64,000 bases of DNA, from positions 32,001 through 96,000 of the IMG/VR virus record IMGVR_UViG_3300037512_001928. One strand, written 5' to 3'. Origin of the DNA: a virus. Lineage: Duplodnaviria; Caudoviricetes. Made by a program: the position numbers and the translations under genes. Below, in pieces: positions 2,730 through 59,220 of the stretch. The notes below the pieces were generated by a model, which ran no database searches, was not told where the DNA came from, and saw nothing but the letters and a program-made list of their open reading frames with translations. Within the stretch, counting starts at the first letter, position 1. Every line of letters begins with the position of its first letter.

Positions 2730-4346
2730 TTATGTCAGACTCTGATCGCCGGAGCCGTCTTCCTGACTGGGCTTAGGCTGTGCGCCCGTCTGAGCCTTGC
2801 CTGGATCCGATACCCGTTCATCGTCCGGTTTCTCAGGTCTTCCCTGTTTCCGGTCGGTCTCTGTGTCCGAAGGTTCGCTTGCTTCTTCCGCTTCGTTAGG
2901 ATTGATGCCCGGTTTCACAAACACCTTCGTCTGAACTTTCTCTTCCGTCTCCGCTGCCTTGCGCATCTTTTCCTCATCGTAGTCAAAGCCGTGCGCGTCC
3001 ATCATCGTCTGATAGCTGAGTACGCCCTCTTTCCACAGTTCGAGGCATTTGTCCTGAAAACTCTTGTTATTCGTCAGATCTGTCACAGGGAAAGCGAATG
3101 TCGGCAGTTTCCCGGATGCGGATCGCGGAAGCCCGTTCTCCGTACCGTTTAGCCCGATCCGGATAATCTCGTTCATCATCTGCGCCATCCGGCGTTTGGC
3201 TTCCTGAATCCGGAGTGCAACCATCTTGGTGCTGACCTGACTGCTTCCGAAACTCGCGGCATTGTCCTGACCGGATACCACGATCCCGCTAATCCCGGCG
3301 GCGGAAAGAATGTCGGAGTTGACGCTCGCATACTTGTCATGGTCGAAGATGTGATCGCTCTGCGGCTGAATCACCTTGGCGTCCGCGAAGTTGTTGGTGA
3401 CCGCAAGAGCCACCTTGCTCGAAGCCGTCATCGCCGTAGCAAACAGATCCTGAAGTTTCATCAGCGCTTCCTTGCTGGGGATCACCTGCTTCTCCGGACT
3501 GCCGTAGGTTACATGAATAAAGGAACGCGCCGCGAGGTTGAGAAGCGAATCTTCCCATGCGGAGATCAGTTCCTTCTTCGCGAAAGCTTTCAGACATGCC
3601 GCCACCATCGGGATCGCGTAACGCTGCCAGTCCGGATGCGCGTCCTGAAGCACGAAGGTTGTGCGCGGATTCAGCTGAACCCACTGCGCATTATTCTTCA
3701 GCCCCAGCGCAACCTCGGGCGGATATCCGCTCAGTCGCTTCTCGAGATCCTCGTCCTCAAGGAATTTCTTGTAGGCTTTCATGCCCATCCGCTTCAGGTC
3801 TGTTCTCAGCGTATCGCAGTTGAATTCCACGAGTGGCTGTTTATTGACCCGGATATTCCCGATCCGGCACAGGTGCGGAGGCAGGGAAATGATATCCCCG
3901 TCAGGCTGTACGCTGATGTACAGATTCGCGTACAGGTAGTACTGGAGGAAGAAGCTTTCCAGCTTATCCCACATCCCGATCCGCTTGAAGTATTCCGTAT
4001 ACTTGGCTCTCGCCAGATCGCTCCCGCCCACGAGGCGGAAATCGTCGATCAGGGAGAAGGGAACGTAGACTTCCCGGATTGCGCCCCTGAACATGGGATC
4101 CGCATCCACCCAGTAATCCGCAAGCTGATAAAAGCTGTTAATGCTGTCCTGTTTATTCCGGAGGATCGAATTGTAATTGAACCCGGTCAGGTTTCCGGTA
4201 AAGGTAATATTCCGGTCGTTGTAGGTCTGCGACACATCCTACTGTTTCAGATCCGCCGCAATCGCGATTTCAGGAGGCGCGGGGGTGTCGACCACCGCTG
4301 CCGCCATGGTTTGCCGTCTTGGCATAAGCCAGTCTCTGATGCCCAT
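2730..4346 (-). CDS. Portal protein (in-frame TAG at codon 36, 4239-4241)
   Basis: ATG 4346 has RBS AGGAGG; frame is continuous with the 501-aa ORF except for one TAG; lies between TerL and protease. Confidence 0.8.
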
Positions 4347-4364
4347 GGGACATCCCTCCTTTAC

Positions 4365-6044
4365 TTATAGGAATCCGACCACGCCAACATCCTCCAGAAA
4401 ATTCATGGAGTTCAGCTGGCGTTTCCGTTCTTCTTCCATGCCGCTGATATAATGGACAGCCATCTGAAGCGCGGACGCCCGGTCTTTGTGCTGGCTGCCC
4501 TTCGCGCTGTCGTAAAGCACAGTGCCGTTTGCGCCGGGTCTTCCGACAATCTGCCCAAGCTCGATCTGCAGGGCGTCCATTTCCTTGTAGATCGCAATCT
4601 CTTTATCTGTCAGTTTCTTGTTATCCGATTCATCGTCGCTCATGATCAGATCATTCCCGATAATACGTTTGCTTTGTACCGGGAATTCGATCGTCTTCCG
4701 CTCCAGCGCAATCGTCAGGGCGCTGACCATCTGCTGGTTGAGCGCGTTAGTTGCAATGAAAGGATGGAGCAGAGGCACGGCGTGATCGATCGTGGAAATC
4801 TCCAGATCCGAAACCAGAGGCGGATATTCCTTGCCGCTGGCAGGATCCACCCACGGCACGGACATGAACTGCGGGAATGCGTCCCCGAGTCCCCGGCAGT
4901 CCACGATGACCTTGACCGTATTCGGAAATTCGATCAGCGCTTTCCGGATCTCCACCGCCAGCGCGTCCAGCCGTTTCCCGTGGAAGGTACGGATCTTCAC
5001 AACCTTCTTCAGGTATCCGCCGTTCTCCAGCTCGATCAGTTTGATGATCACGATTGCTGCGTTATCCGCGTTGCTGGCGGAGCTGGTCGCGATGTCCAGC
5101 GCGATGATGTACTGGCTTGCCGAATGCGCGGGCTGTGCAACTTCCACGTCCGTCAGGATCCTGCATTTATCGGTCAGGTCGAAGGGAAACACAGCTCCGT
5201 CCGCGTTCCCGATGAAGATACTCTCGTATTCCATCATGAACTTGGTGCTGTCCATTTCCTTCCGTTCCTTCTCGAAATAAGCCTGTTCCGTAATCCCTGC
5301 CCGGATCGCCGCCCTGTAGTCCATCGCGTAGGCGATCGACAGGTGATCGTATCCGGGTTCGCGCATCTGCGCCAGCGTATTGACAAACATCCGGTAGAAG
5401 TAGTTGTTCTTCAGGCATGCGGATGTGATGGAGATCATCTTACTCGGATAATCCCGGATCCCAAGCTGGATGCACAGGTCGCGGGTCGTGTTCAGGACGG
5501 GGCGGGCAATCGCCTCCAGATCCGCCTGTTTGACTTCCGGCGCTTCGTCGATGACGAGAATCTTGGCGCGGATGCCACGGAAAGTCCCCAGCGAAAAGCT
5601 TTCAATCCAGCTCCCGTTTTTGAAGGTGCACCTTCCTTTATGCGCCGATATCTGAACCAGATGGTTATGCCGGGTGCCGTCCAGCTCCCGGGCAATCTCC
5701 GGATTCTTGGAGAAATAGTTGTCGATCTTTTTGAGTACCAGCACAGCCTGTTCCGCCGTTCCGGAGATGATCGCAATCCCGGACTGCGGATAAAGGATCG
5801 CCATCGCGATACAGCAGATCGCCGTGATCCATGTCTTGCCGAATCCACGGCTCTGCACATCGTAGATTGTATGGTATTTTCCGAAGATCCGCGCCTGTAC
5901 CCGCTGTACGGGCTTGAGCTTGACCTTCAGGTATTCCTCGATAAATACGTCCTAATGGGTTCGCCAGTACCAGATCTGTTTTGTCCACGCCTCGTAATTC
6001 TTCAGCTCGGAGATCTGCGAAAGCCGGTCAGCCTGTGTAATCAT
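4365..6044 (-). CDS. terL: Terminase large subunit (in-frame TAG at codon 31, 5952-5954)
   Basis: Walker A SRGFGKT, Walker B LVIDEA, nuclease ALDIA and KDRASA; ATG 6044 overlaps the upstream TGA (ATGA); Q-motif LKPVQ lies upstream of the ORF-track start. Confidence 0.92.
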
Positions 6045-6910
6045 AGTCTTACATCAGCTCCGATCGCTTTCCATGTATGCTCGTAGTCGTGGAGAACCTT
6101 GTCCACATCGTCATCCGGAAATGTGTACGGATTCTCGTTCAGATATCCCTCCAGCTCAAGTTTCAGGATAATCTCGCCGAGGCTCCCCATCCCGGTATTT
6201 TCCCCGGGCTTTCTCCGGCATGCCGCGAAGTTGGAACTCTTGCTCAGATCGTCGAAGATCATCTGGGCTTCCTTGTATTCCTTCGCCGTGATCTGCCCGC
6301 GCCGCATCTTGTCTTCCGCGATGTCCGCGTTCAGGCTGGCTTTTGCAACCTTCCTCGCATAGTCGCGGATGTTGACGTTATCGAGCACGAAGTCCTGCTC
6401 ATACTGCGCGTAGATATCCTCGAGCATCTTGATCTCTGTCGGCGTGAACCATCCGCGCCAGACCGTATCGTATCTCGGCTTATCGTCCGGATCAGAAAAC
6501 TCGTGGAGCATCTTGTCGCTCGTCTTGTCGCTCGTTGCCCGGACGTTCTCCTCGTACTCGTAGGCATAGTTGGAGTTCATGACGCTGAAGAAAGCCTGAG
6601 CCTACGCCTTGTCGTAGATCTGTTTCTTCTCGTCTTCCGGGACGGTCGGGTCGATATACCTGCGGTTGGTCGACAGCGTGTACTGCGCTTTCTTTTCCAT
6701 CGCCCTCCGTGCCGCATCGTTGATCTTCCGGTTGTTTTCAAACGCGTACTTCTGTAGCGTCTCATTGTCGACCACAAATTTCCTCGCGCAGTCCTTGCAC
6801 CATGCGTCCCGGTACAGCTGGCTTGCCCATTGTTTGTGTGGGAAGAAATCGTCCAGCGGCAGACTGCGGTTGCAGTAAATGCATCTCTTCCCCGGTGTTT
6901 TCTTTCCCAT
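6041..6910 (-). CDS. Probable terminase small subunit with N-terminal Zn finger (in-frame TAG at codon 103, 6602-6604)
   Basis: ORFs 6602-6910 and 6041-6580 are in one frame separated by a single TAG; CxxC...CxxC; translationally coupled to terL. Confidence 0.65.
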
Positions 6911-6985
6911 TTCCTTTGTTCAAGTCCTTTATTCCAAAAATTAAAAAAGACCAGCGCCATCCGAAGATGACGCTTATGTCTTTGG

Positions 6986-8251
6986 TTATAGTAAAATCGG
7001 ATAGACGCACTTGCGTCCGTAGTTTGGCTGCATGATCAGCACGGTCGCGCCCGGCTTGCTGAATCGTCCGAGGCGCTGTGCGAATCCGTCCACCCCGCAC
7101 AGGCTCGGTACGCGCACAATGATGCTGTTCCCGTCCCGCGTGGTTCCGCTTGCAAGCTCTTCCTCATGATGCAGATGCCCGCATACGAAATAGTCGATAT
7201 GCTTCCCGTATACGTTGACCGCGTCCCGGCAGATATCCGAAATCCTGCCGCCCTGTCCGTGAAGCATCAGAAATTTAAACCCTGCGACTTCCGCGTACTG
7301 GTAGTTGCCTGTCAGCTCATGAACCTGAATCATCGGCTGATATCCTGTCAGCTTTTCGTACAGGTACCAGTTGATGATCTTGACCATGTTGTCCTTCGGG
7401 AAATCCCCGGCTTTGCTTCCGAGCGGTCTGACCTCGTCATGATTCCCGCCGACCATATACAGATCGATAGGAAGCCCCGTCCGATCCTGCAGATCCCTGA
7501 CCCACTGCGCGAACATCTCGCTGAAGTAGATCGTGGAATCCACAATCCCGTACTGCAGGTTCTGGAGCTGACTCATTCTCAGCATCCCGGCGATACAGTC
7601 CCCGACCAGCATGATATGAATCCGCCCGACCTGCTCGTCCCGCGCAATGTCGCATGCGCGTTTCAGAAGCATGCTCATCCGCTGATGGCATACTTCCTCG
7701 TCATAGTAGTTGATTACTTCGTCCAGCAGTCCCCGTACATCGATAACCTCGCCAAAATGAATATCACCCAGAGCGATCACCATCTCGCCATCGGTGGAAA
7801 CTTTCAGCTCGGTGCCGTCGCCGACTGTAAAATCCTTCAGGTAGACGCCATGGGTTCGCGCCGCGTCGATGACGGCTTCCCGGAGCAGGGCATCCCTGGC
7901 TTCCGCCCGGTAAACCTTGTTGTTCTCGCGGGCAAGGTCGCGCAGTTTCTGCCGTTGTATATAATCAACAGCCTCATCTCTGAAGCTGGGGTTTTCTTCG
8001 ACTGTTTGCTGGTCTTCCGTCACGCCCATCATGATCTGCGGCGCTTCGTCCCGGCTGCGCAGGACGTTTGCGTCATACGCAAGCTTGACGCCGACTCCGG
8101 CTTTCCGCAGGGTATCGCCGCTCATGTCCAGATCGTAGGACGCGACAATGTCCGCCCATTCGTCCTAAAGCTCGCCGTTCTTCTTGCGAACCATGTCGTA
8201 GACAAGATCCGCTTTTTCCTTCGGAGTCAGTTCCTCGATGAGTCTCGCCAT
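6986..8251 (-). CDS. Calcineurin-like metallophosphoesterase (in-frame TAG at codon 29, 8165-8167)
   Basis: DIH, GD, GNHD, HG and GHLH motifs; ATG 8251 with RBS AAAGGAG. Confidence 0.85.
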
Positions 8252-8283
8252 GCTGTTCTCCTTTGTTTTCCTTTATTCGTATC

Positions 8284-8335
8284 AAGACTCTGTATCAAGC
8301 TCCGCTAGCTATGGAATATTTGCTGCAAGAGTCTT
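8284..8335 (-). ncRNA. CAGCA-motif small RNA candidate, copy 1
   Basis: Terminal stem AAGACTC/GAGTCTT followed by TTGCAGCAA. Confidence 0.5.
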
Positions 8336-8341
8336 CAATAA

Positions 8342-8418
8342 TGGTACCGCCGGAGAGACTTAAACTCTCAGTCACACCGGGTTAGAATCGGCTCCGTCTT
8401 TCGTTGCGGCACGGCGGC
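8342..8418 (-). tRNA. Amber suppressor tRNA (anticodon CUA), Leu-like
   Basis: Cloverleaf: acceptor GCCGCCG/CGGCGGT, A73, encoded CCA; anticodon loop TTCTAAC (CTA = 8385-8383); T arm GAGAG-TTTAAGT-CTCTC. Confidence 0.88.
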
Positions 8419-8427
8419 ATATGTAAC

Positions 8428-8514
8428 TCGATGCTGTTAAAAGGCACCCCGAAGGGCGCGGATAGTAGATCAAACTATCAATTATGTCATGTATGAACTT
8501 GCTGTTAGCATCGA
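8428..8514 (-). ncRNA. CAGCA-motif small RNA candidate, copy 2
   Basis: Stem TCGATGCT/AGCATCGA followed by AACAGCAA; internal hairpins including a UUCG tetraloop. Confidence 0.55.
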
Positions 8515-8518
8515 AAAA

Positions 8519-8833
8519 TCAGTCACGCCTGTAGTCGGCATACTTTTTATAGATACACCGGTCTGGGAGCAGATCATCTTCACCAATCAGATCTCCGCGA
8601 AACGCATGTCTCAGCATCCGGTTGTTGTAACCTTTGCGGAATCTCCCAAACTCAGTCTGGTTAATCGGGCTGTACCTGACCCGGCTGTTCTCCCTGAAAT
8701 CCGGGTTATGCGCCAGAACGTCCGCCTCGGTCTTGCAGAACCGCAGACTCCCGAACTGCTTGATGACTCTGCCGCGGTCACGCCTCTTCGACAGCCGCTT
8801 CCGCTGATACCTGTTCAGATGAAGCATCGCCAT
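8519..8833 (-). CDS. Basic hypothetical protein
   Basis: RBS GGAGG, Arg/Lys-rich ORF. Confidence 0.55.
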   Translation of the reverse strand: MAMLHLNRYQRKRLSKRRDRGRVIKQFGSLRFCKTEADVLAHNPDFRENSRVRYSPINQTEFGRFRKGYNNRMLRHAFRGDLIGEDDLLPDRCIYKKYADYRRD

Positions 8834-9578
8834 CATCTCCTCCCTGAATGGAAACATTGTCCCAGTCCTCAGGTTTGGGCTGTACCATATCTCCGGGAAT
8901 CATCTCTCCCTTCATATCGTACCACTGACCGCCGCATCGGTAGATCCGATCCATATCGTAGAGCGCATCGCAGTTCCCGTTCCGGAATCGCACGATCTTC
9001 ACGCGGTACTTCTCCGCATAAACAACCCATTCCGTTTTCCCGTCGCTGAAGGTTCCGTCCGTCCGAACCGTATACCGCTCCATCGGAGCCATATCGTGTT
9101 CCTGCCGGATATCACGGAATCTTTGCCGGAGGCTCGGCTTCTTCTCCCGGGTAACGCGCTGCGCTTTCCGCCGCCGGACGCGATCGTCCAGCATCTCCGT
9201 CATCGCCCTGAAGCTGAGTTGTTCTTCGGTTGCCGTATCGCCGCTGGATCCGCCGGATGCATAAAGCAGATTGCTGATATCGCTCGGGCAGGACGAGACC
9301 GGAATCTCCCGCGCCTCTCCGACAGCTTCCTTGTAGTCGGATACGATCCCATCCATATTTCCGTACAGCAGGAAATATCCGATACTGTCCAGCATGCGTT
9401 TGACGCGCTGTTCCGGAGAGAAAACTTCTTCTCCGTTATCGTTCAGCCAGTTGCGGTCGCAGTAATCCTCCCACCCGTTCTAAATGTCCCGGGCGGTATG
9501 AAGCATCTCGTCAGTTGTTCCGGATTTCAGCGTCAGGGTTCTGCCGTTTGGTAACCATACTTTGTAGCCTGTTGCCAA
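8778..9578 (-). CDS. Hypothetical protein (in-frame TAG at codon 33, 9480-9482)
   Basis: TTG 9578 after a purine-rich RBS; frame continuous with the 205-aa ORF except for one TAG. Confidence 0.65.
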
Positions 9579-9642
9579 GGAAAAACACCCTTCCCTTATA
9601 TACTATTAAATGAAACCCCAAAAATGCAGACAAAACGGGGAT

Positions 9643-10038
9643 TTACAGCGCGGAGCAGGGTTTGTCGCTGTGGCAGGCTTCCCACCTGCGGTTGTTCTCA
9701 GCCGTGATCTTCTCGACCGCCCGGTCGAACATCTCATTGGAAGTCTGCCGCGCATGCCCTAGATATTCCGCGATATCGCTCAGTCCGTATCCCTGCATCA
9801 GGTAGCTGACAATCAGCTTCTCCGTCTGACTCAGCCCGCACGTCTCGATCAGCATATCCAGATCGATGTAGGTGCAGACCACATCCTCGTTCAGCGGAAA
9901 CACGCCCTCCGTGTCCAGCAGGTTTCCCTGAAAGAGTCCGGGCAGATAGGATTCATCGCACTCAGATCTCTTCAGGATCTACTCCCTGACCACGCGGGCT
10001 TCGCTCAGGGGTGTGTATGCAAAACGGGAATCCCTCAA
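9643..10038 (-). CDS. Sigma-70 region-4-like HTH protein, candidate late regulator (in-frame TAG at codon 20, 9979-9981)
   Basis: LSQTEKLIVSYLMQGYGLSDIAEYLG HTH; TTG 10038 after AAAGGTG. Confidence 0.7.
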
Positions 10039-11159: not shown

Positions 11160-11233
11160 AGCCGACAGTCAGACTTGCACTGACAGCCTGCGCTTTACAA
11201 GTGCGCCGCTCTTTCTCGTTGAGCTATGTCGGC
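11160..11233 (-). tRNA. tRNA-Thr(UGU)
   Basis: Acceptor GCCGACA/TGTCGGC, D stem GCTC/GAGC, anticodon loop CTTGTAA, T arm GTCAG/CTGAC; CCA not encoded. Confidence 0.85.
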
Positions 11234-12356: not shown

Positions 12357-12647
12357 TCAGGAAAGATTCCTGTTGTCCGCATAAACCCTGTTCTCCGCTT
12401 TCTCGTACGTGTCGAGGTACCACTCGCGTTTGTCCCCGTTGTATGTCAGCTCAAACAGGCGCTCGTCAGGATAGTTCGTAGCAAGAATATACTTCCAGTT
12501 CTGAAGCGACTTGCATTTCCAGACCACAAACACCGTATATGATTTCCGGAATTGATCCGGATCCGTTGCGGCGGAAGGAACATAGACGCGCTCATACATC
12601 CAGTCCCGCACAATGTTCTGTGCGATCTGATCCATGTTGTCCGCCAT
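12357..12647 (-). CDS. DUF6275-like phage protein
   Basis: VFVVWKCKSLQNWK...ELTYNGDK.EWYLD.Y.K pattern. Confidence 0.65.
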   Translation of the reverse strand: MADNMDQIAQNIVRDWMYERVYVPSAATDPDQFRKSYTVFVVWKCKSLQNWKYILATNYPDERLFELTYNGDKREWYLDTYEKAENRVYADNRNLS

Positions 12648-12650
12648 CGC

Positions 12651-13766
12651 TTAACCCTCCGTCCACGGAATGTCCGTTTCGTTGAATACATGCGTCCCGA
12701 TCGGAAGCTGTTTCTCCCACCGGATCGCCCGGATCCTGTCATGCGCCACATTGGTACCGGAAATCTTAATCCATCGCCTGACAAACTGTACTGCGCGTTC
12801 CGCGTTTCTCGCCTGAACGTACACGCACTTCTCAGCTTTCTGCTGAGTCCCGAGCAGTACGCAGTAGCAATAGATCTTTTTCTGCGCCATCTGATCACCA
12901 CCCTCTAATAATATATAGAACATTTCGGTGCAGAAAGTTGCACGGAAATAAAAATTTTCTTATCCGTTCGGATTCTTATCGAGGATGACGATGTTTTCAT
13001 TCCCGCTCTGGTAGACGGTTCCATCCGTTGTCTCCACAATCACCCAGTTGTCCGGGCGGCGCTCAACCCGGCTGACGTCCACAATCTCCGGCTCAAACGC
13101 AACGTTGATCACAGCCCAGCGGTCGTGATCCGGATATTCCTTTACATCATACATCGCGTGATGATAAACCAGCGTTCCCGCCGGAATCAGAAGCATCGCC
13201 GCCAGCAGGATAATAAACGCCACAATCAGTTTCTTATTCTCCATATTTTTCTCCTTCGGATACATATATCGCTTTCCCTCCTTCGACCTTTGCGAAGTCT
13301 TCCATCAGGATGACCCGCGCCGCAGACAGGCAGTATACTTCGTCGCTCGTCATCAGCCGCCGCAGATTGCCTTTATGCTGTAATCCACGAAGACTATACC
13401 TTCCGCGCCCCGCATGATAAATCTGCCACCATTCATACTCTGGCACTCTGGACTGATACCTCGTCCCAACTTCCGGCAGAAACCTGCGCGTTATCATTCG
13501 CTTATCCCTTCTTCCTGCTCGTCTGCCCACGGGGTTTCCGTCATCTCGGCTTCGGTCGGCAGTCCGTCCCAGAGCCGGTAATAACGATTGTAAAATGCAT
13601 GAACCCGTGAATAAGCCGCCCTCTCCACATCCGAATCAAGTTCGTCTATCTCCGGATCGTATTCATACGTATCGAGATGCAGATCAATCCTTCGCGGACC
13701 CTCAACCCAATATTTCTTCTCCGGGTCGATCTGGCACACTTCTTCCATCGTCAGTACTCTCGCCAT
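12651..13766 (-). other. Four small hypothetical genes (about 12651-12890, 12960-13265 with a TM segment, 13234-13497, 13494-13766)
   Basis: Closely spaced ORFs with RBSs. Confidence 0.6.
12910..12941 (-). promoter_or_regulatory. Putative phage-sigma promoter GCAAC-N15-GTTCTATATA
   Basis: One of six copies of the motif, each upstream of a gene start. Confidence 0.65.
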
Positions 13767-15262: not shown

Positions 15263-18050
15263 TTATATCATGCCTGCAATATCCATGACGCACAGCACCA
15301 GATTCATGAGCCACCCAATGCCAATCAGCATGGATCCAACCTTGAACGACCTTGATTTCATATCGACCATATCAAACAGGATAATCTGTAATCCAAGGAA
15401 CATTAGACATGTCATAACATTTATCCTTTGCATTTTGCCTTACACCTCCCAACAGCCTCGATCAGCTCATCCGTATTTACAAATACGAGCTGTTTCACCT
15501 GCTTTCCCTCGCTGTCGACAATCTCTATACACACCTCTTTCGGAGCGCAGTCCTGATTGGTCACAATCAGCCCGCAGTCGTTCGTCGCAATAAACTCGGG
15601 ATCACTGAACACACACTTGGTAAACATCTCATCTTCCTTTCTGGTTTGTGTATTCCATTTACAGTAGGTTTCTGTATTATACAGAGGTTCCTCAGTCAAC
15701 CAGTCTTCCCCGTATATCGGACATTTGTAATGGTATTTCAGATTTGTTGCCATGGCTCACTCCCAGCTATCGCATTTGCCGTCCTTCATGGTCAGATGTT
15801 TATCGCAGAAGTTTCGATCCATCTCGGCGCAAACAAAATGGCGGCATGTATTACACGCCGCCGGACATTCCACAAGCTCGTAATCCCGGATCTCCTCCGG
15901 CGTCAGCTTCCTGTCGTATAGAAGCCACGCCCACGCCGTGCGGTTAATCGCCGGAATCACGGTTTCGCCGTCGCACTCTTCCCACTCGATAAAGCCGCTC
16001 GGCTGACACCCCGGCCCCATCGGTCGCATGATCATGTAATAACCCCAGCGGTTACGCATTCTCCTGCTTCTCCTTCTCTTCCTCGGCTTTATGTTCCGCC
16101 TCGCCCTCTACGATCGACTGCGACCACGCCGTCTCGTGAACAGCCCTGCCAAGCTCAATGAACTTCTCCATCAGCGAAACCATCCGCTTCTCCATCTGCC
16201 CGATCCGCCACCACGTCATCCAGAAGCAGAAAATAACGATAATCTCCAGAATCAGCCCCATCGTTTCAGTCATCATGTGTAAATCCTCCTTATTTATTAT
16301 TCATAGTCCTTGTCAAGATCAATCATCGCATTAAGCGTAGGAAGCACCATCTCGTCAAACGACTGTATCGTCAGCTGGTTCCACGCCAGCATCACATTGA
16401 GAAGCGCCGCCGCAATCTTCGACTGTTGTGATTCGGTCAGCTCGCCCAGCACAGCCCGTAGGTTCTTGATGCTTTTTTCGAGGAGGCGGCTCCCGTCCGC
16501 CTGACTTACATACCCGCGAAGCACCACCGGCGTATTGTTCAGCACATTCCTGACTTCGTCATAATGGTCGTGCTGAATCGCAGCGCCCTCAACGTCTCCG
16601 CGCCGGAGCAGATCGTTACGTGACTGTTTTATCATTGAAGTCCTCCCATGGGCGTAGTATCGCTTCCGGATCCATCTTTGCCCCACACGCAGGGCAAACT
16701 TCCACCGGCGTCTTTGTCAGCGCCTGACATATACTGCACTGATATGCGAACGCAGCGTAGATCGGAGAATCAGTATTGCCCAGATTGCTGATCCACCACC
16801 CGACCCTTTCATTTTCATCCATCGCCAATCAGTCTCCTTAGTTCGTCCTTTGCCGCCAGGATTCCGGCTTCATCCATCTCCCGGATCGCCGCCACCAGCA
16901 TCCTGAACTCGTTGGTAATGTTGATCCACTCACCCTTCGGTTCCTGCGTCATCTCCGCCTCCACGAATCTTCATAACCTCCGCCGTCGACATATGCTCCA
17001 CCAGACGCTCGTACGTTTCAAGCATAAACCGGATCGCGGCGGGACCTCCGTAATCGCGGTAAAGCCGCCAGAACCCGGGAAGCTTTCGCAGAAAGTAAAT
17101 CATCCTCTGCTCTCCTCCGTCTCCAGCGATTCCAGAAAATCCGCCAAGCGCGTATCCTGCCTCACTCTCTCCGCCGCAATCTGCGCGTCCGTCAGTCGGA
17201 ATCCAAGCTTGCCCATCTTCTCCGCCGCAATGTCCGTCCCGAAGATGTTTGCCATAATCGAGAGAAGATGCGTATCGCTCAGGTGATACTGCTCCCGCCG
17301 GTTCAGCTTACCCATGACCCAGCACCGCCCCAATCCGCACAGCGTACATGATGAAGCCCAACAGCACGATCGCGCTCATCGCCGCAACAAACCGCCCGTC
17401 CTTCCCGTACCGCACCGCCGCCACGAACAGCGCGACACACGCAGCCGCCAGCACGATGCATACCCACATGATCACCTCCAGCGTCATCCTCGAATCACCC
17501 ATGAAAAGACTCATCATCCGAAAATACCTCCTCCATGTCCCGTCAGAACCATCACCAGCAACGCCGCCATCATCAGATACATCGCGGAAATAAGGAACCC
17601 AAGCGCTCCGCCCTTCCGGTACCCAATCCCCTCCTTCCAGCACATCCACGAGATCCGCAGCCCGCAGGCCCCCGCCGCAACAAACAGCACCGACAGCACC
17701 CAGCACATCAGCTTCATCACGATCTGCACAAACCCCAGCCAGCTCATCCGTTCCCTCCTTCGTCTTTCTTATGACCGAACTTATAATCCTTCGCTCATTT
17801 CAGATCATCCTCCAGCCCCGCATGCCGTTTCACATATCTCGCCACCATATCGCTGATCTCACCGCAAAGGTTATCCACGCACTTCTTCCCGGCATAGTTC
17901 AGCCCGCCGCACAATTCCTTAATCCGGTTCAGCCTCGCCGCCACCTCCTCGCTCAGTCTTACATCAAGATCCTCGTCGTACAAATTCAACCATCCTCTTT
18001 CTTCCTGTTTATTCAATCCCGCCGCAGTCGGCGCGGAATGTAAATACCGG
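15263..18050 (-). other. Cluster of about 12 small hypothetical genes, several membrane or Cys-rich
   Basis: Coupled ORFs, e.g. 15421-15753, 16052-16276, 16297-16635, 16616-16828, 17100-17315, 17514-17747. Confidence 0.6.
15757..16059 (-). CDS. DarA C-terminal-like domain protein
   Basis: RPMGPGCQPSGF...YDRKLTPEEIRDYEL pattern. Confidence 0.45.
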   Translation of the reverse strand: MRNRWGYYMIMRPMGPGCQPSGFIEWEECDGETVIPAINRTAWAWLLYDRKLTPEEIRDYELVECPAACNTCRHFVCAEMDRNFCDKHLTMKDGKCDSWE

Positions 18051-44966: not shown

Positions 44967-45660
44967 ACATCTGTTTGATCAGTTGTATTGTCAGGGTTAC
45001 TTCGCCGCCGTCATGGATGTAAAGAGGCTGATCAGCGGTGCGCGGTATGTGCTGAAGTTCAATCACAGGAAACTGACCGACAAGCGTCTGGATCGTCTGA
45101 TTGATTTTTTGATTGCCCAGCATATCATTATCCGCGATGATCCATCCTGCAGTATCTCGTACGTTCCCGCCAAAGATCAGTGGTGCCTCTTCAATTTTGA
45201 GACTGGCAAGACGATTGCGAGTGAAGGCGATGGCTGATTTTAATATTCAGGAATATCAGGCGGGGTATACAAAGGCGCTGCTTGATGTGTATGAAATCTT
45301 TTCGCAGTATGACAGACAGATGTCAAAGCTTCGGATCATCAGTGCTCCGGCGTCCGAGAAGATCCGTAAGATCATGGACGCCATGATTGCCGCCCGGTAT
45401 GACTGTATGAAGTACGGCGTAAAGGATATGAATCTCGTGTTGACCAAGGATCATAAGTTCCGGCTGAAAAGGAAGGAGCCTGAAAAATGAAGGGCAAAGT
45501 AGTTGAAACCATCTTTATTAACGATTCCGATGCGACTGTGGACAAGCTGATTGTCTGGCTGCAGAGTCTTCCGCCGAATACTCCGGTTCCTTCCGATATA
45601 ACCTTCGCCTACAGCTATGAGAAGGAAAAGTTCTTAGTGCTTTCACTGGAGGATTTATGA
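44956..45660 (+). other. Three small hypothetical genes
   Basis: Coupled ORFs ending at 45237, 45490 and 45660. Confidence 0.55.
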
Positions 45661-48600
45661 AGAATTACTGCGTTTATCATTTACACAGTGATTTATCTCT
45701 TCTGGATTCCACCACCAACTTTAAGGATTATGTCAACAAAGCGGTCGAGTCAGGGATGACCGCCATTGCCTCGACCGAGCATGGGCTTCCGCGATCGTGG
45801 GTTGAAAAGAAACTGTACTGCGATGAGAAGGGGATCAAATTTATTCACGGTGTTGAGATCTACCTGACCGAGGCGTTGGAGCCAAAGGTTCGTGACAACT
45901 ATCATACGATTCTGCTTGCGAAGAACATCGAAGGTGTGCATGAGCTGAACCGCCTGATTGAATTGTCTTCCCGTCCCGATCATATGTATTACAGCAACCG
46001 GCTTTCCTTTGATGAGTTCCTGGCGATATCGTCGAACATCATTAAGATCAGCGCGTGCCTTGCATCTCCGTTGCGTAGGCTCCCGCCGTATCATGAGCGC
46101 TTCCGCGAACTGCTGAAACATTATGATTACCTCGAAGTTCAGCCGCACAGCAACGAGGAACAGGCTGATTACAATCGTAAGCTGATGCATTATTCAGATA
46201 CGTTTGGAATCCCGCTGATCGCCGGTACGGATACGCATTCGCTGAATCAGTACAAGGCTGAGTGCCGTGATATTCTGATGTGGCGCAAGGAGCAGTTCTA
46301 TCCCGGCGAGGAAGGTTTTGACCTGACGTGGCATTCCTGCGATGAACTACTGCATGCGTTTCAGGTTCAGAATGCACTGCCTCCTGCGGTGTATCTTGAA
46401 GCGATCGAAAATACAAACGTTATGGCTGATAGCGTCGATAATTTTGAGCTTAATAAAAGTATCAAGTATCCAATCCTTTACGGATCGCCGGAGAATGATA
46501 CAAAGAAACTGCACGAAGTTGTATGGCGTAAGCTTGACGAAAAGCTTGAAACCGGGATTATTCCACGGGAGCAGGAACAGGGATTCCGCGATGCGATCAG
46601 TGAAGAATTCCGGGTCTTTGAAAAGATCGGTATGAGCGGGTTCATATTATGCATGCATGAACTTCTTTCATGGTGCCGTGATTCCGGGATGTATATCGGA
46701 CCCGGACGCGGTTCTGTTGGCGGTTCCCGTGTCGCGTACGTTGCCGATATTATCGACATTAACCCTGAACAGTGGAACACAAACTTTGCAAGGTTTGCAA
46801 ACGAGGACAGAAAAGAAATAGGTCGAACGATGGCCTACGTTGGCTGAGAAGCCTCCGAAAAAATATCCATTGAATTGCTGGGACACCCTGAGAGCCGTCA
46901 AGCTACAACGTGCGGATGAAAGACGCCGGAGCGTGAATGCCTGAGAATCTGACGGATTGGGCAATCAGCAGCGAAACTCCGAATAGGAGAACGTTCAACG
47001 ACCATCCCTTTGGGAGTACATCGCAAGCGCGATGGAAGTGGTGGACATCCTTCGGGATGAAGATATGGTCTGTGCTTTATGGAAACATAAAGGGTGAAAA
47101 CCTGCCCGGGGTAGCGCCTGGTATGTGTGTGTAAATGGTAAGGAAGGAGGTGAGTAGTTATGGGTAAAGTGAAAGATTTGACCGGGATGAAGTTTGGAAG
47201 ATGGACTGTCATTCACGAAGTTGGGCGTAATAAGTCTGGCGGTGCGACATGGTTGTGTCAGTGTGAATGCGGGACTATGCGTGTATTAGATGGACGGTCT
47301 TTACGTGAACATACGAGTAAATCCTGCGGTTGTTTAGTTAAAGACCCTTCATATGTACATTGTAAACCAAATCTTAAACATGGCGGGAGAAATGAGAGAT
47401 TATACCAAGTATGGCGTGGTATGATTGATCGGTGCCACAATCAAAAGAACAAGTATTATCCGTGTTATGGTGCTCGTGGTATTACAGTATGTGATGAATG
47501 GCGATATGATTATGCTGTATTTCGTGAGTGGGCGATGAGTCATGGATATGATCCAAACGCTAAGAAATATGATTGTACTATTGATCGTATTGATAATGAT
47601 AAAGGCTATTCTCCAGAGAATTGTGCATGGCATAATCAAGTTGAGCAGTGTAATAACCGATCAAACAATCATATCATAACCTTCAATGGTGAGTCACACA
47701 CCATTTCTGAATGGGCAAGAATGGTTGGATTAAGCAAGGATACATTGCGACGTCGGATTGAAAATTATGGATGGACAATCGAAATGGCCCTGACTACTCC
47801 AAACACACACACTGCATAACACTTCAGGACATCGACGTGGATGTAGTTGATTCTGATCGTCCTGCAATCTTTGAGCATATCGAATCAAAGTTCGGTAAAC
47901 CTTATACGGGTCGTGTCGCGGCATATGGTACGATTCAGTCCCTGGCATTTATCGACGATGTGGGCGGCGGTCTTGCAAACAAATGGGAATGGGAGCACAA
48001 CCCTGACAAGTTCAATGAATCCCGGCATATAAAAATCAAAGGCGATTATGATCCTGCGAATCCGTTTACGCTGAAGCGTATCGCTGAAATCAAAGCCGCA
48101 TATAAACAGGATCAGGATGCCGCCATGGCGCGTTATCCTGAGATCTTCCGGTATTATGACGGCTTGGTCGGTACAAGAGTATCGCAGTCGATTCATCCTG
48201 CCGGGATCGTCATCTCCCCTCTTGTCCTTGACGAAGAATATGGTGTGTTCAACAAAGACGGCGAACGCTGTTTGTTGTTGAATATGGACGAGCTTCACGA
48301 GGTTGGCGCTGCGAAGTTCGACTTTCTGATCCTGAAAACCGTAACGGTTATTCGCGATTGTTATGCGCTGATGGGTAAACAGCCGCCGAGAATGCATGAA
48401 GTCAACTGGGATGATCAAAAGGTTTGGGCTTCCATGGCGTCGGATGCGAATTCCATCTTCCAGTTTGAATCCGACTTTGCTGCTGAATCCATGAAGAAAT
48501 TCAAGCCCAAGTCAATCTTTGATTTATCCATGGTGACTGCGGCATTGCGTCCATCTGGAACGTCATATCGTGATCAGCTGTTTGCACATATTCCGCATCA

Positions 48601-59127: not shown

Positions 59128-59220
59128 TTGGGTGACTATCAGTAGGCTTTTGTTGTGTGCCTGTTCGTGATCTTGGTGATTATAGGCATTGAGCGTCACG
59201 GACCTACTCCAAGAATTTAA
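59128..59220 (+). CDS. 30-aa membrane peptide with in-frame TAG at codon 6 (59143-59145)
   Basis: RBS GAGGTG, MGDYQ*AFVVCLFVILVIIGIERHGPTPRI fills the gap between ligase and RemA-like genes. Confidence 0.45.

Follow-up and report, generated by a model that had tools for sequence, protein, structure and literature searches.

A candidate leucine-type amber suppressor tRNA without a long variable arm and the probable reading of TAG as leucine in the late genes of an uncultured gut or rumen phage

The amber suppressor supP (Su6) of Escherichia coli derives from tRNA-Leu(CAA) and inserts leucine at UAG, and its leucyl-tRNA synthetase (LeuRS) ignores the anticodon. UAG also encodes leucine in chlorophycean and chytrid mitochondria (NCBI tables 16 and 22) and in a rhizarian. 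Phyllopharyngean ciliates have the same assignment (PMC11687900, PMC6551751). Across the literature that we searched, which did not include most subscription journals, UAG stands for leucine in mitochondria and protists only; the phage literature within that search held no report of TAG as leucine, in agreement with an earlier note on this DNA, made from the letters alone, which had called such a code undescribed in phages. Borges et al. (bioRxiv 10.1101/2021.08.26.457843) describe only TAG to Gln and TGA to Trp in phages whose code is unlike that of the host, Cook et al. took TAG as Gln, and Kienbeck et al. (PMC10879173) predicted the isotypes Gln, Trp, Ile, and Tyr for phage suppressor tRNAs, with no Leu.

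The phage analyzed here is uncultured, comes from gut or rumen, and has a genome of 107 kb. Positions refer, unless genome coordinates are stated, to the window, the 64,000-nucleotide stretch that spans bases 32001 to 96000 of one 107,217-bp IMG/VR record (CheckV completeness, 94%). Like the recoded gut phages (crAss-like, Lak, and the clades of Borges et al.; Peters et al., PMC9523058), it has a tRNA(CUA), in-frame TAG codons restricted to late genes for structure and packaging, and gene termini that avoid TAG, and charging is likewise left to a synthetase of the host, which presumably uses the standard code. Those phages have recoded TAG to Gln (code 15) or TGA to Trp (code 4), whereas leucine is the predicted residue here; moreover, the base composition of this genome, with about 48% GC across the window and about 53% across the late genes examined, is not AT-rich, and its TAG codons are sparse, with one per gene and about 12 in total. 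Whereas supP is a laboratory mutant of a host type II tRNA with a long arm and G18G19, the tRNA here occurs naturally in a phage genome, and it has a variable region of 6 nt and an A19-U56 elbow. The UAG-to-Leu assignments of organelles and protists are genome-wide cellular or organellar codes, whereas here a virus would impose its code on a bacterium that uses the standard one. Human mitochondrial tRNA-Leu(UUR) and minimal E. coli tRNA-Leu constructs accept leucine although they have no long arm, mainly through A73, A14, and the corner (PMC9976931); compared with these mitochondrial and engineered molecules, the phage tRNA would be a natural short-arm leucine acceptor used with a bacterial LeuRS. 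It has the A73, the 3-bp D stem with a 13:22 mismatch, the A14, and the A15 of bacterial type II tRNA-Leu but not the long arm of >10 nt.

The large terminase subunit (TerL) of this phage has at most 31.5% identity to that of any isolated phage, the nearest being Clostridium phage c-st, and structural genes of its close relatives belong to the YonB, YomU, and YomX Pfam families, similarities that together place it among SPbeta/c-st-like phages. The clade is large, with >300 TerL homologues in public metagenomes. A profile scan found relatives' contigs binned with four Clostridia metagenome-assembled genomes (MAGs) and one Alloprevotella MAG (five MAG contigs), which hints at a Clostridia host; a scan of genome contigs with the single TerL protein recovered no relative.

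Genes in the left half of the genome lie on the minus strand, and all 12 credible in-frame TAG codons of the genome fall in the minus-strand late module. Six of the genes that carry them are just left of the window, and the other six are within it:

2730 to 4346, minus strand: portal gene, with TAG at codon 36 (4239-4241)
4365 to 6044, minus strand: TerL gene (PHROG and Pfam terminase matches), with TAG at codon 31 (5952-5954)
6041 to 6910, minus strand: gene upstream of TerL (phrog_3314), with TAG at codon 103 (6602-6604)
6986 to 8251, minus strand: metallophosphoesterase/exonuclease gene directly downstream of tRNA(CUA), with TAG at codon 29 (8165-8167)
8778 to 9578, minus strand: gene with TAG at codon 33 (9480-9482)
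9643 to 10038, minus strand: small gene, with TAG at codon 20 (9979-9981)

The phrog_3314 gene is possibly the small terminase, and among the genes left of the window is a YonB-like capsid gene of 332 codons whose TAG is codon 162. From 2730 to 10038 and over about 5 kb left of the window, every late gene has exactly one TAG. Reading through the TAGs connects conserved N-terminal segments to the bodies of the late genes, and in genes such as TerL, portal, and capsid, homology to relatives extends through the TAG. The start ATG of TerL overlaps the preceding TGA as ATGA, which fits a translation start upstream of the TerL TAG. In a greedy ORF call, 141 ORFs ended in TAA or TGA versus 15, mostly on the noncoding strand, that ended in TAG; as a terminator, TAG is therefore essentially unused in this genome. 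Nine of 11 TAGs are within the first 50 codons (P of about 3e-5 under uniform placement along genes); this placement and the lone TAG in each late gene look more like translational gating than neutral recoding.

Seven TAG contexts had been quoted in the earlier note, and six of them proved to be in real minus-strand genes; the seventh, YQ*AFVVCLF (59143-59145, plus strand), belongs to a 30-codon intergenic frame and was rejected as a sense TAG. Three minus-strand TAG frames were set aside as well: those at 12446-13039 and 68803-70272 (window numbering, past the window end) are noncoding or antisense, and in the frame at 15757-16170 the real protein begins after the TAG. A possible TAG at codon 20 of a 512-codon gene left of the window (genome 10643-12181), which has no homologues in the loci collected, was also excluded. 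In the gene at genome 30930-31370 (minus strand), just left of the window, codon 12 is a TAG with an ATG immediately after it, whereas relatives encode Lys-Phe there, and a shortened product could start right after the TAG.

We tabulated the residue aligned to each TAG in 25 related loci recovered from IMG/VR by TerL, together with contigs reached through protein look-ups (loci and contigs carry L numbers below); near-identical loci were counted once, 11 of the 12 credible sites were scored, and log-odds were summed in the manner of Codetta. Five of the 11 columns are invariant Leu (TerL, 14/14 groups with a sense codon there; capsid, 12/12; others, 9/9, 7/7, and 4/4), and one more, in the gene at 8778-9578, is mostly Leu (L in four groups, T in one, and I in one; L in six, T in one, and I in one in the all-group scoring described below), results that support the proposal of the earlier note that TAG may be read as leucine. 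At the TAG of the gene at 9643-10038, each of the 11 related loci with a sense codon encodes Leu, and two others in this tabulation have TAG. Among 2,753 non-Leu positions of these genes, only 0.22% fall in columns with at least 90% Leu, compared to 33.5% of true Leu codons, so that the presence of five of 11 TAGs in such columns has a binomial P of 2e-11. The summed log-odds place Leu above Lys by 15.7 nats, above Gln by 16.3, and above Ile by about 19. Leu codons of relatives at the TAG sites are mostly CTG, CTT, and CTC, indicating that the Leu pattern is not merely a product of one-step TTG neighbors.

The other five columns do not point to leucine. Four are variable and polar (K/R/Q; K/R/D/T/Q; A/I/S/K/E/N; T/Q/A/I), including codon 36 of the portal gene, which is uninformative (I, A, N, K, E, S, and gaps in relatives), and codon 103 of the gene at 6041-6910 (T, Q, A, and I). 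The fifth, codon 29 of the metallophosphoesterase gene, is invariant Asp; relatives have L-D-x-D/E-W at this site versus L-TAG-D-E-W here, with Asp one position later, and a local shift by one position may soften this conflict. The earlier note had named columns dominated by Gln or by polar residues as the outcome that would speak against leucine. Such columns were not the general pattern: Gln dominates none of the 11 columns and is a minority residue in three of the variable ones, although four columns are variable and polar and the Asp column adds a fifth exception.

In a search of 5.8 billion proteins, codon 31 of TerL corresponded to Leu in 112 of 120 homologues. The remaining eight comprise five with a "Q" that is TAG translated with code 15 and three truncated to 531 amino acids (aa) at the TAG. 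Public gene calls for TerL of the clade (L029:10001-11668, L032:684-2375, and L035:47-1738) either render TAG as Q or split the gene into pieces of 30 and 531 aa. The database proteins of this clade are systematically in error at TAG sites.

Viewed from the relatives, whose TAG positions number 94, this genome has Leu at 41, TAG at 8, Ile at 7, and Val at 6. A TAG at the same site as here is found in 17 related loci for TerL, in nine for the gene at 8778-9578, and, with later loci included, in six for the gene at 9643-10038. The closest relative with DNA is L031 (81% TerL identity), and five TAGs are common to both genomes, of which four are in invariant-Leu columns and one has no other homologue in the loci collected. 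Seven TAGs are newer than the split from L031, where the residues at these sites are L, L, R, K, I, Q, and D (two of seven Leu). The TAG of the capsid gene arose in this lineage from CTG, a path of two steps via the synonymous TTG. The simplest reading is that new TAGs were recruited at tolerant N-terminal positions; AAG would become TAG in a single step, and selection may favor one TAG per late gene.

The tRNA gene lies among these late genes with a short leader:

8342 to 8418, minus strand: tRNA(CUA), a candidate Leu-type amber suppressor without a long variable arm (ARAGORN, arm parsing, synteny, and covariation)
8437 to 8508, minus strand: leader 5' of tRNA(CUA) (consensus scan and sequence; pattern matches only)

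ARAGORN calls a 77-nt tRNA with anticodon CUA. Its acceptor stem (GCCGCCG/CGGCGGT) has G1-U72 and C2-G71 and is followed by A73 and a genome-encoded CCA; U8 and G9 precede a D stem of 3 bp (CCG/CGG) with a C13-A22 mismatch and an AGAC motif, and the D loop begins with A14 A15 and lacks GG. The anticodon loop is UUCUAAC, its stem contains an A31-C39 mismatch, and position 38 is C, so that the A36A37A38 motif present in 12 of 13 relatives' tRNAs is absent. The variable region has only 6 nt (GTGACT), and because it ends in U, an A15:U48 pair is possible. The T loop is UUUAAGU, and at the elbow A18 and A19 are opposite U55 and U56, the G18G19 that is a determinant for E. coli LeuRS being missing. 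Every tRNA feature listed in the earlier note, from G1-U72 to the 6-nt variable arm, was recovered, and the U1-A72/G73 typical of tRNA-Gln is absent, as that note had also stated. The note named no strand; the gene is on the minus strand.

The "Pyl" label that ARAGORN attaches to tRNA(CUA) is based on the anticodon only, and we rejected it: in tRNA-Pyl the anticodon stem is 6 bp, the variable loop is 3 nt, and a single base separates the acceptor and D stems, whereas the corresponding features here are 5 bp, 6 nt, and two bases (U8 G9). The Rfam tRNA model did not match tRNA(CUA), either across the whole window at the gathering threshold or in 8250-8550 at an E value of ≤10, and its single-sequence minimum-free-energy fold is not a cloverleaf (z score of -1.0); we do not count these results against the gene because its orthologues covary. 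That tRNA(CUA) is real is confirmed, at the level of comparative sequence analysis, by the ARAGORN call, synteny, and covariation in 14 orthologues. The leader contains a putative sigma-70-like promoter match (consensus scan; CTAACA, 16 nt, TG-CATAAT; 8508-8481), followed at about 8460-8437, still upstream of the tRNA, by a GC hairpin with a U run. A terminator-like hairpin is also present upstream at 8542-8524, and AACAGCA/CAGCA motifs occur on either side of the tRNA (about 8506-8498, 8440-8431, and 8327-8320).

ARAGORN found one other tRNA gene in the whole genome, also on the minus strand, and Rfam identified an intron in the window:

11160 to 11233, minus strand: tRNA-Thr(UGU) (ARAGORN; Rfam, 57.5 bits)
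46814 to 47092, plus strand: group I catalytic intron RF00028 (Rfam, 82.6 bits; E value of 1.7e-19)

The corner of tRNA-Thr(UGU) is unusual, with a D loop lacking GG and a T loop of UGCAAGU; relatives have in its place either a tRNA-Thr or, in L031 and L038, an odd tRNA-like gene with a 2-nt "anticodon." The intron is situated between ORFs 45657-46847 and 47160-47819 and probably interrupts a gene of the replication region.

Orthologous tRNA(CUA) genes are present in 14 distinct relatives, mostly just upstream of the phosphoesterase gene as here and, in L015/L017 and L029/L030, within a tRNA array slightly further upstream. All 14 have A73. Most positions of their four stems are paired in 13 to 14 of the 14 sequences, usually as two to five pair types per position, and the two ends of the anticodon stem are paired in 11; the 13:22 mismatch that leaves a 3-bp D stem, a type II trait, is found in 11 of 14. 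Their variable regions measure 20, 17, 17, 16, 16, 15, 13, 11, 9, 7, 6, 6, 5, and 5 nt. The long-arm orthologues are most like phage tRNA-Leu genes, and the anticodon stem of the L001 suppressor is that of tRNA-Leu(UAG) except for one base pair. Positions 19 and 56 covary, with G-C in nine, A-U here and in L031 (7352-7436), U-A in L040 (3663-3738), and C-G in L001 (7710-7798), which argues that the elbow is retained despite the absence of G18G19; such noncanonical elbows may keep function while differing from host tRNAs.

The L031 tRNA (85 nt) has a variable region of 13 nt, and its acceptor and T arms are nearly the same as those of tRNA(CUA) here, including the unusual U54 U55 U56, indicating that the arm was lost secondarily in a lineage of orthologous Leu-type tRNAs, later than the divergence from L031. 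The nearest relatives by TerL (86% and 81% identity) are represented by contigs that end before the tRNA, and the loss is dated only to after that divergence. TAG scores Leu first in every genome group irrespective of arm length, from +13 to +41 in long-arm groups to +9.9 in L038/39, +6.3 in L019/21, and +5.3 in L040 among short-arm ones; for this genome, the all-group scoring gives Leu +0.4, followed by Lys at -12.8. The short variable arm, which the earlier note had raised as a caveat, is therefore accounted for by orthologues that grade from 20 to 5 nt, all with A73 and with Leu first in each group. In an unrelated phage tRNA array, a tRNA(CAU) (L037:213-287) has 27 of 29 bases of the acceptor stem and T arm alike, U54 U55 U56 included; it was the sole match of a degenerate T-arm/acceptor pattern in metagenome contigs, and an exact-pattern search of viral contigs with the anticodon-to-T-arm segment found nothing. 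Arm exchange or recombination among phage tRNAs, with a chimeric origin of tRNA(CUA), is possible.

The reading that we favor, and consider probable, is that tRNA(CUA) is charged by the host LeuRS and that the approximately 12 late-gene TAGs are read as leucine; for TAG as leucine across the clade our confidence is higher still. The tRNA would descend from a type II tRNA-Leu whose anticodon changed to CUA and whose variable arm shrank to 6 nt, it would be expressed in infection and charged with leucine by the host enzyme, and full-length terminase, portal, capsid, and other late proteins would need it, making it a regulatory gate. Neither a release-factor gene nor a class Ia synthetase gene was found in the genome, and the lack of the latter means that charging would have to be by the host. 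According to a review (PMC9976931), E. coli LeuRS relies on A73 and D/T-loop tertiary interactions rather than on the anticodon or the long arm, a minimal tRNA-Leu without anticodon arm and long variable arm is still leucylated, and C2-G71 counters SerRS; the earlier note had likewise named A73 and the D/T fold for bacterial LeuRS, with the anticodon largely ignored. Charging of tRNA(CUA) by LeuRS is plausible because A73, C2-G71, A14, A15 (with a possible U48), the 3-bp D stem, and a compensated A19-U56 are all present.

Loss of the arm may instead have loosened the identity of tRNA(CUA), leading to ambiguous charging (leucine and a second residue, e.g., lysine) or a recent identity shift. 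We regard this as unlikely, although it would explain why the newest TAGs are at K/R and Asp positions and older ones at invariant Leu. Leu is absent from five of the 11 TAG columns, whereas 6.3% of the ordinary Leu codons of these genes lie in columns of this kind, and two of the five are dominated by K/R; the TAGs in these two are specific to this genome, with AAG, AAA, and CGC in near relatives. A rough hand estimate puts Lys and Leu about level on the seven lineage-specific sites, and in E. coli, LysRS often mischarges amber suppressor tRNAs that have A73 and U35. Over all sites, however, Lys is 15.7 nats under Leu, the non-Leu TAG sites of other short-arm genomes show no Lys enrichment, and the one-position shift would account for the Asp column. 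Further, the five invariant-Leu sites, TerL codon 31 among them, have been kept, and the capsid TAG is itself derived from CTG.

Another hydrophobic residue (Ile, Met, or Val) at TAG is very unlikely. Some TAG columns of the relatives mix I, V, and M, but these residues are absent from the strict-Leu columns, and IleRS, MetRS, and ValRS recognize their own anticodons, which CUA does not supply. Some phage suppressor tRNAs have a predicted Ile isotype (PMC10879173), yet Ile is about 19 nats under Leu here and 14 to 93 nats under in groups where it ranks second. Glutamine at TAG (NCBI code 15), the assignment of crAss-like phages and others with a recoded TAG, is the sole phage TAG reassignment reported in the papers searched, and both the Q that public pipelines give in five TerL homologues of the clade and the minority Gln in three variable columns might seem to favor it; we find it barely credible, as no column among the 11 is dominated by Gln, Gln scores 16.3 nats under Leu, tRNA(CUA) has G1-U72 and A73 where tRNA-Gln typically has U1-A72 and G73, and the relatives' tRNAs are type II and Leu-like. 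It is scarcely tenable, too, that the tRNA-like gene does not function and translation really ends at the TAGs, with genes that start downstream of them or are broken: Rfam does miss tRNA(CUA), most TAGs are N-terminal, and one gene has an ATG right after its TAG, but relatives conserve the segments 5' of the TAGs in the same frame, an ATGA overlap couples the TerL start to the TGA before it, the capsid TAG, at codon 162 of 332, is deep in its gene, diverged relatives keep TAG at the same sites, and the tRNA stems covary.

Current accounts of stop-codon recoding in phages give TAG to Gln and TGA to Trp, and annotation tools hard-wire code 15. What would be new, if leucine is inserted as we propose, is an arm-less Leu-type suppressor together with a series of orthologues whose arm shortens by degrees, from 20 to 5 nt, and whose elbow covaries. 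This series would be a natural counterpart of the laboratory result that bacterial LeuRS can do without the long arm, and it is a possible source of compact Leu-accepting amber suppressors. Finally, because each late gene has just one TAG, near the N terminus, the hypothesis that a code switch gates the late genes can be tested directly.
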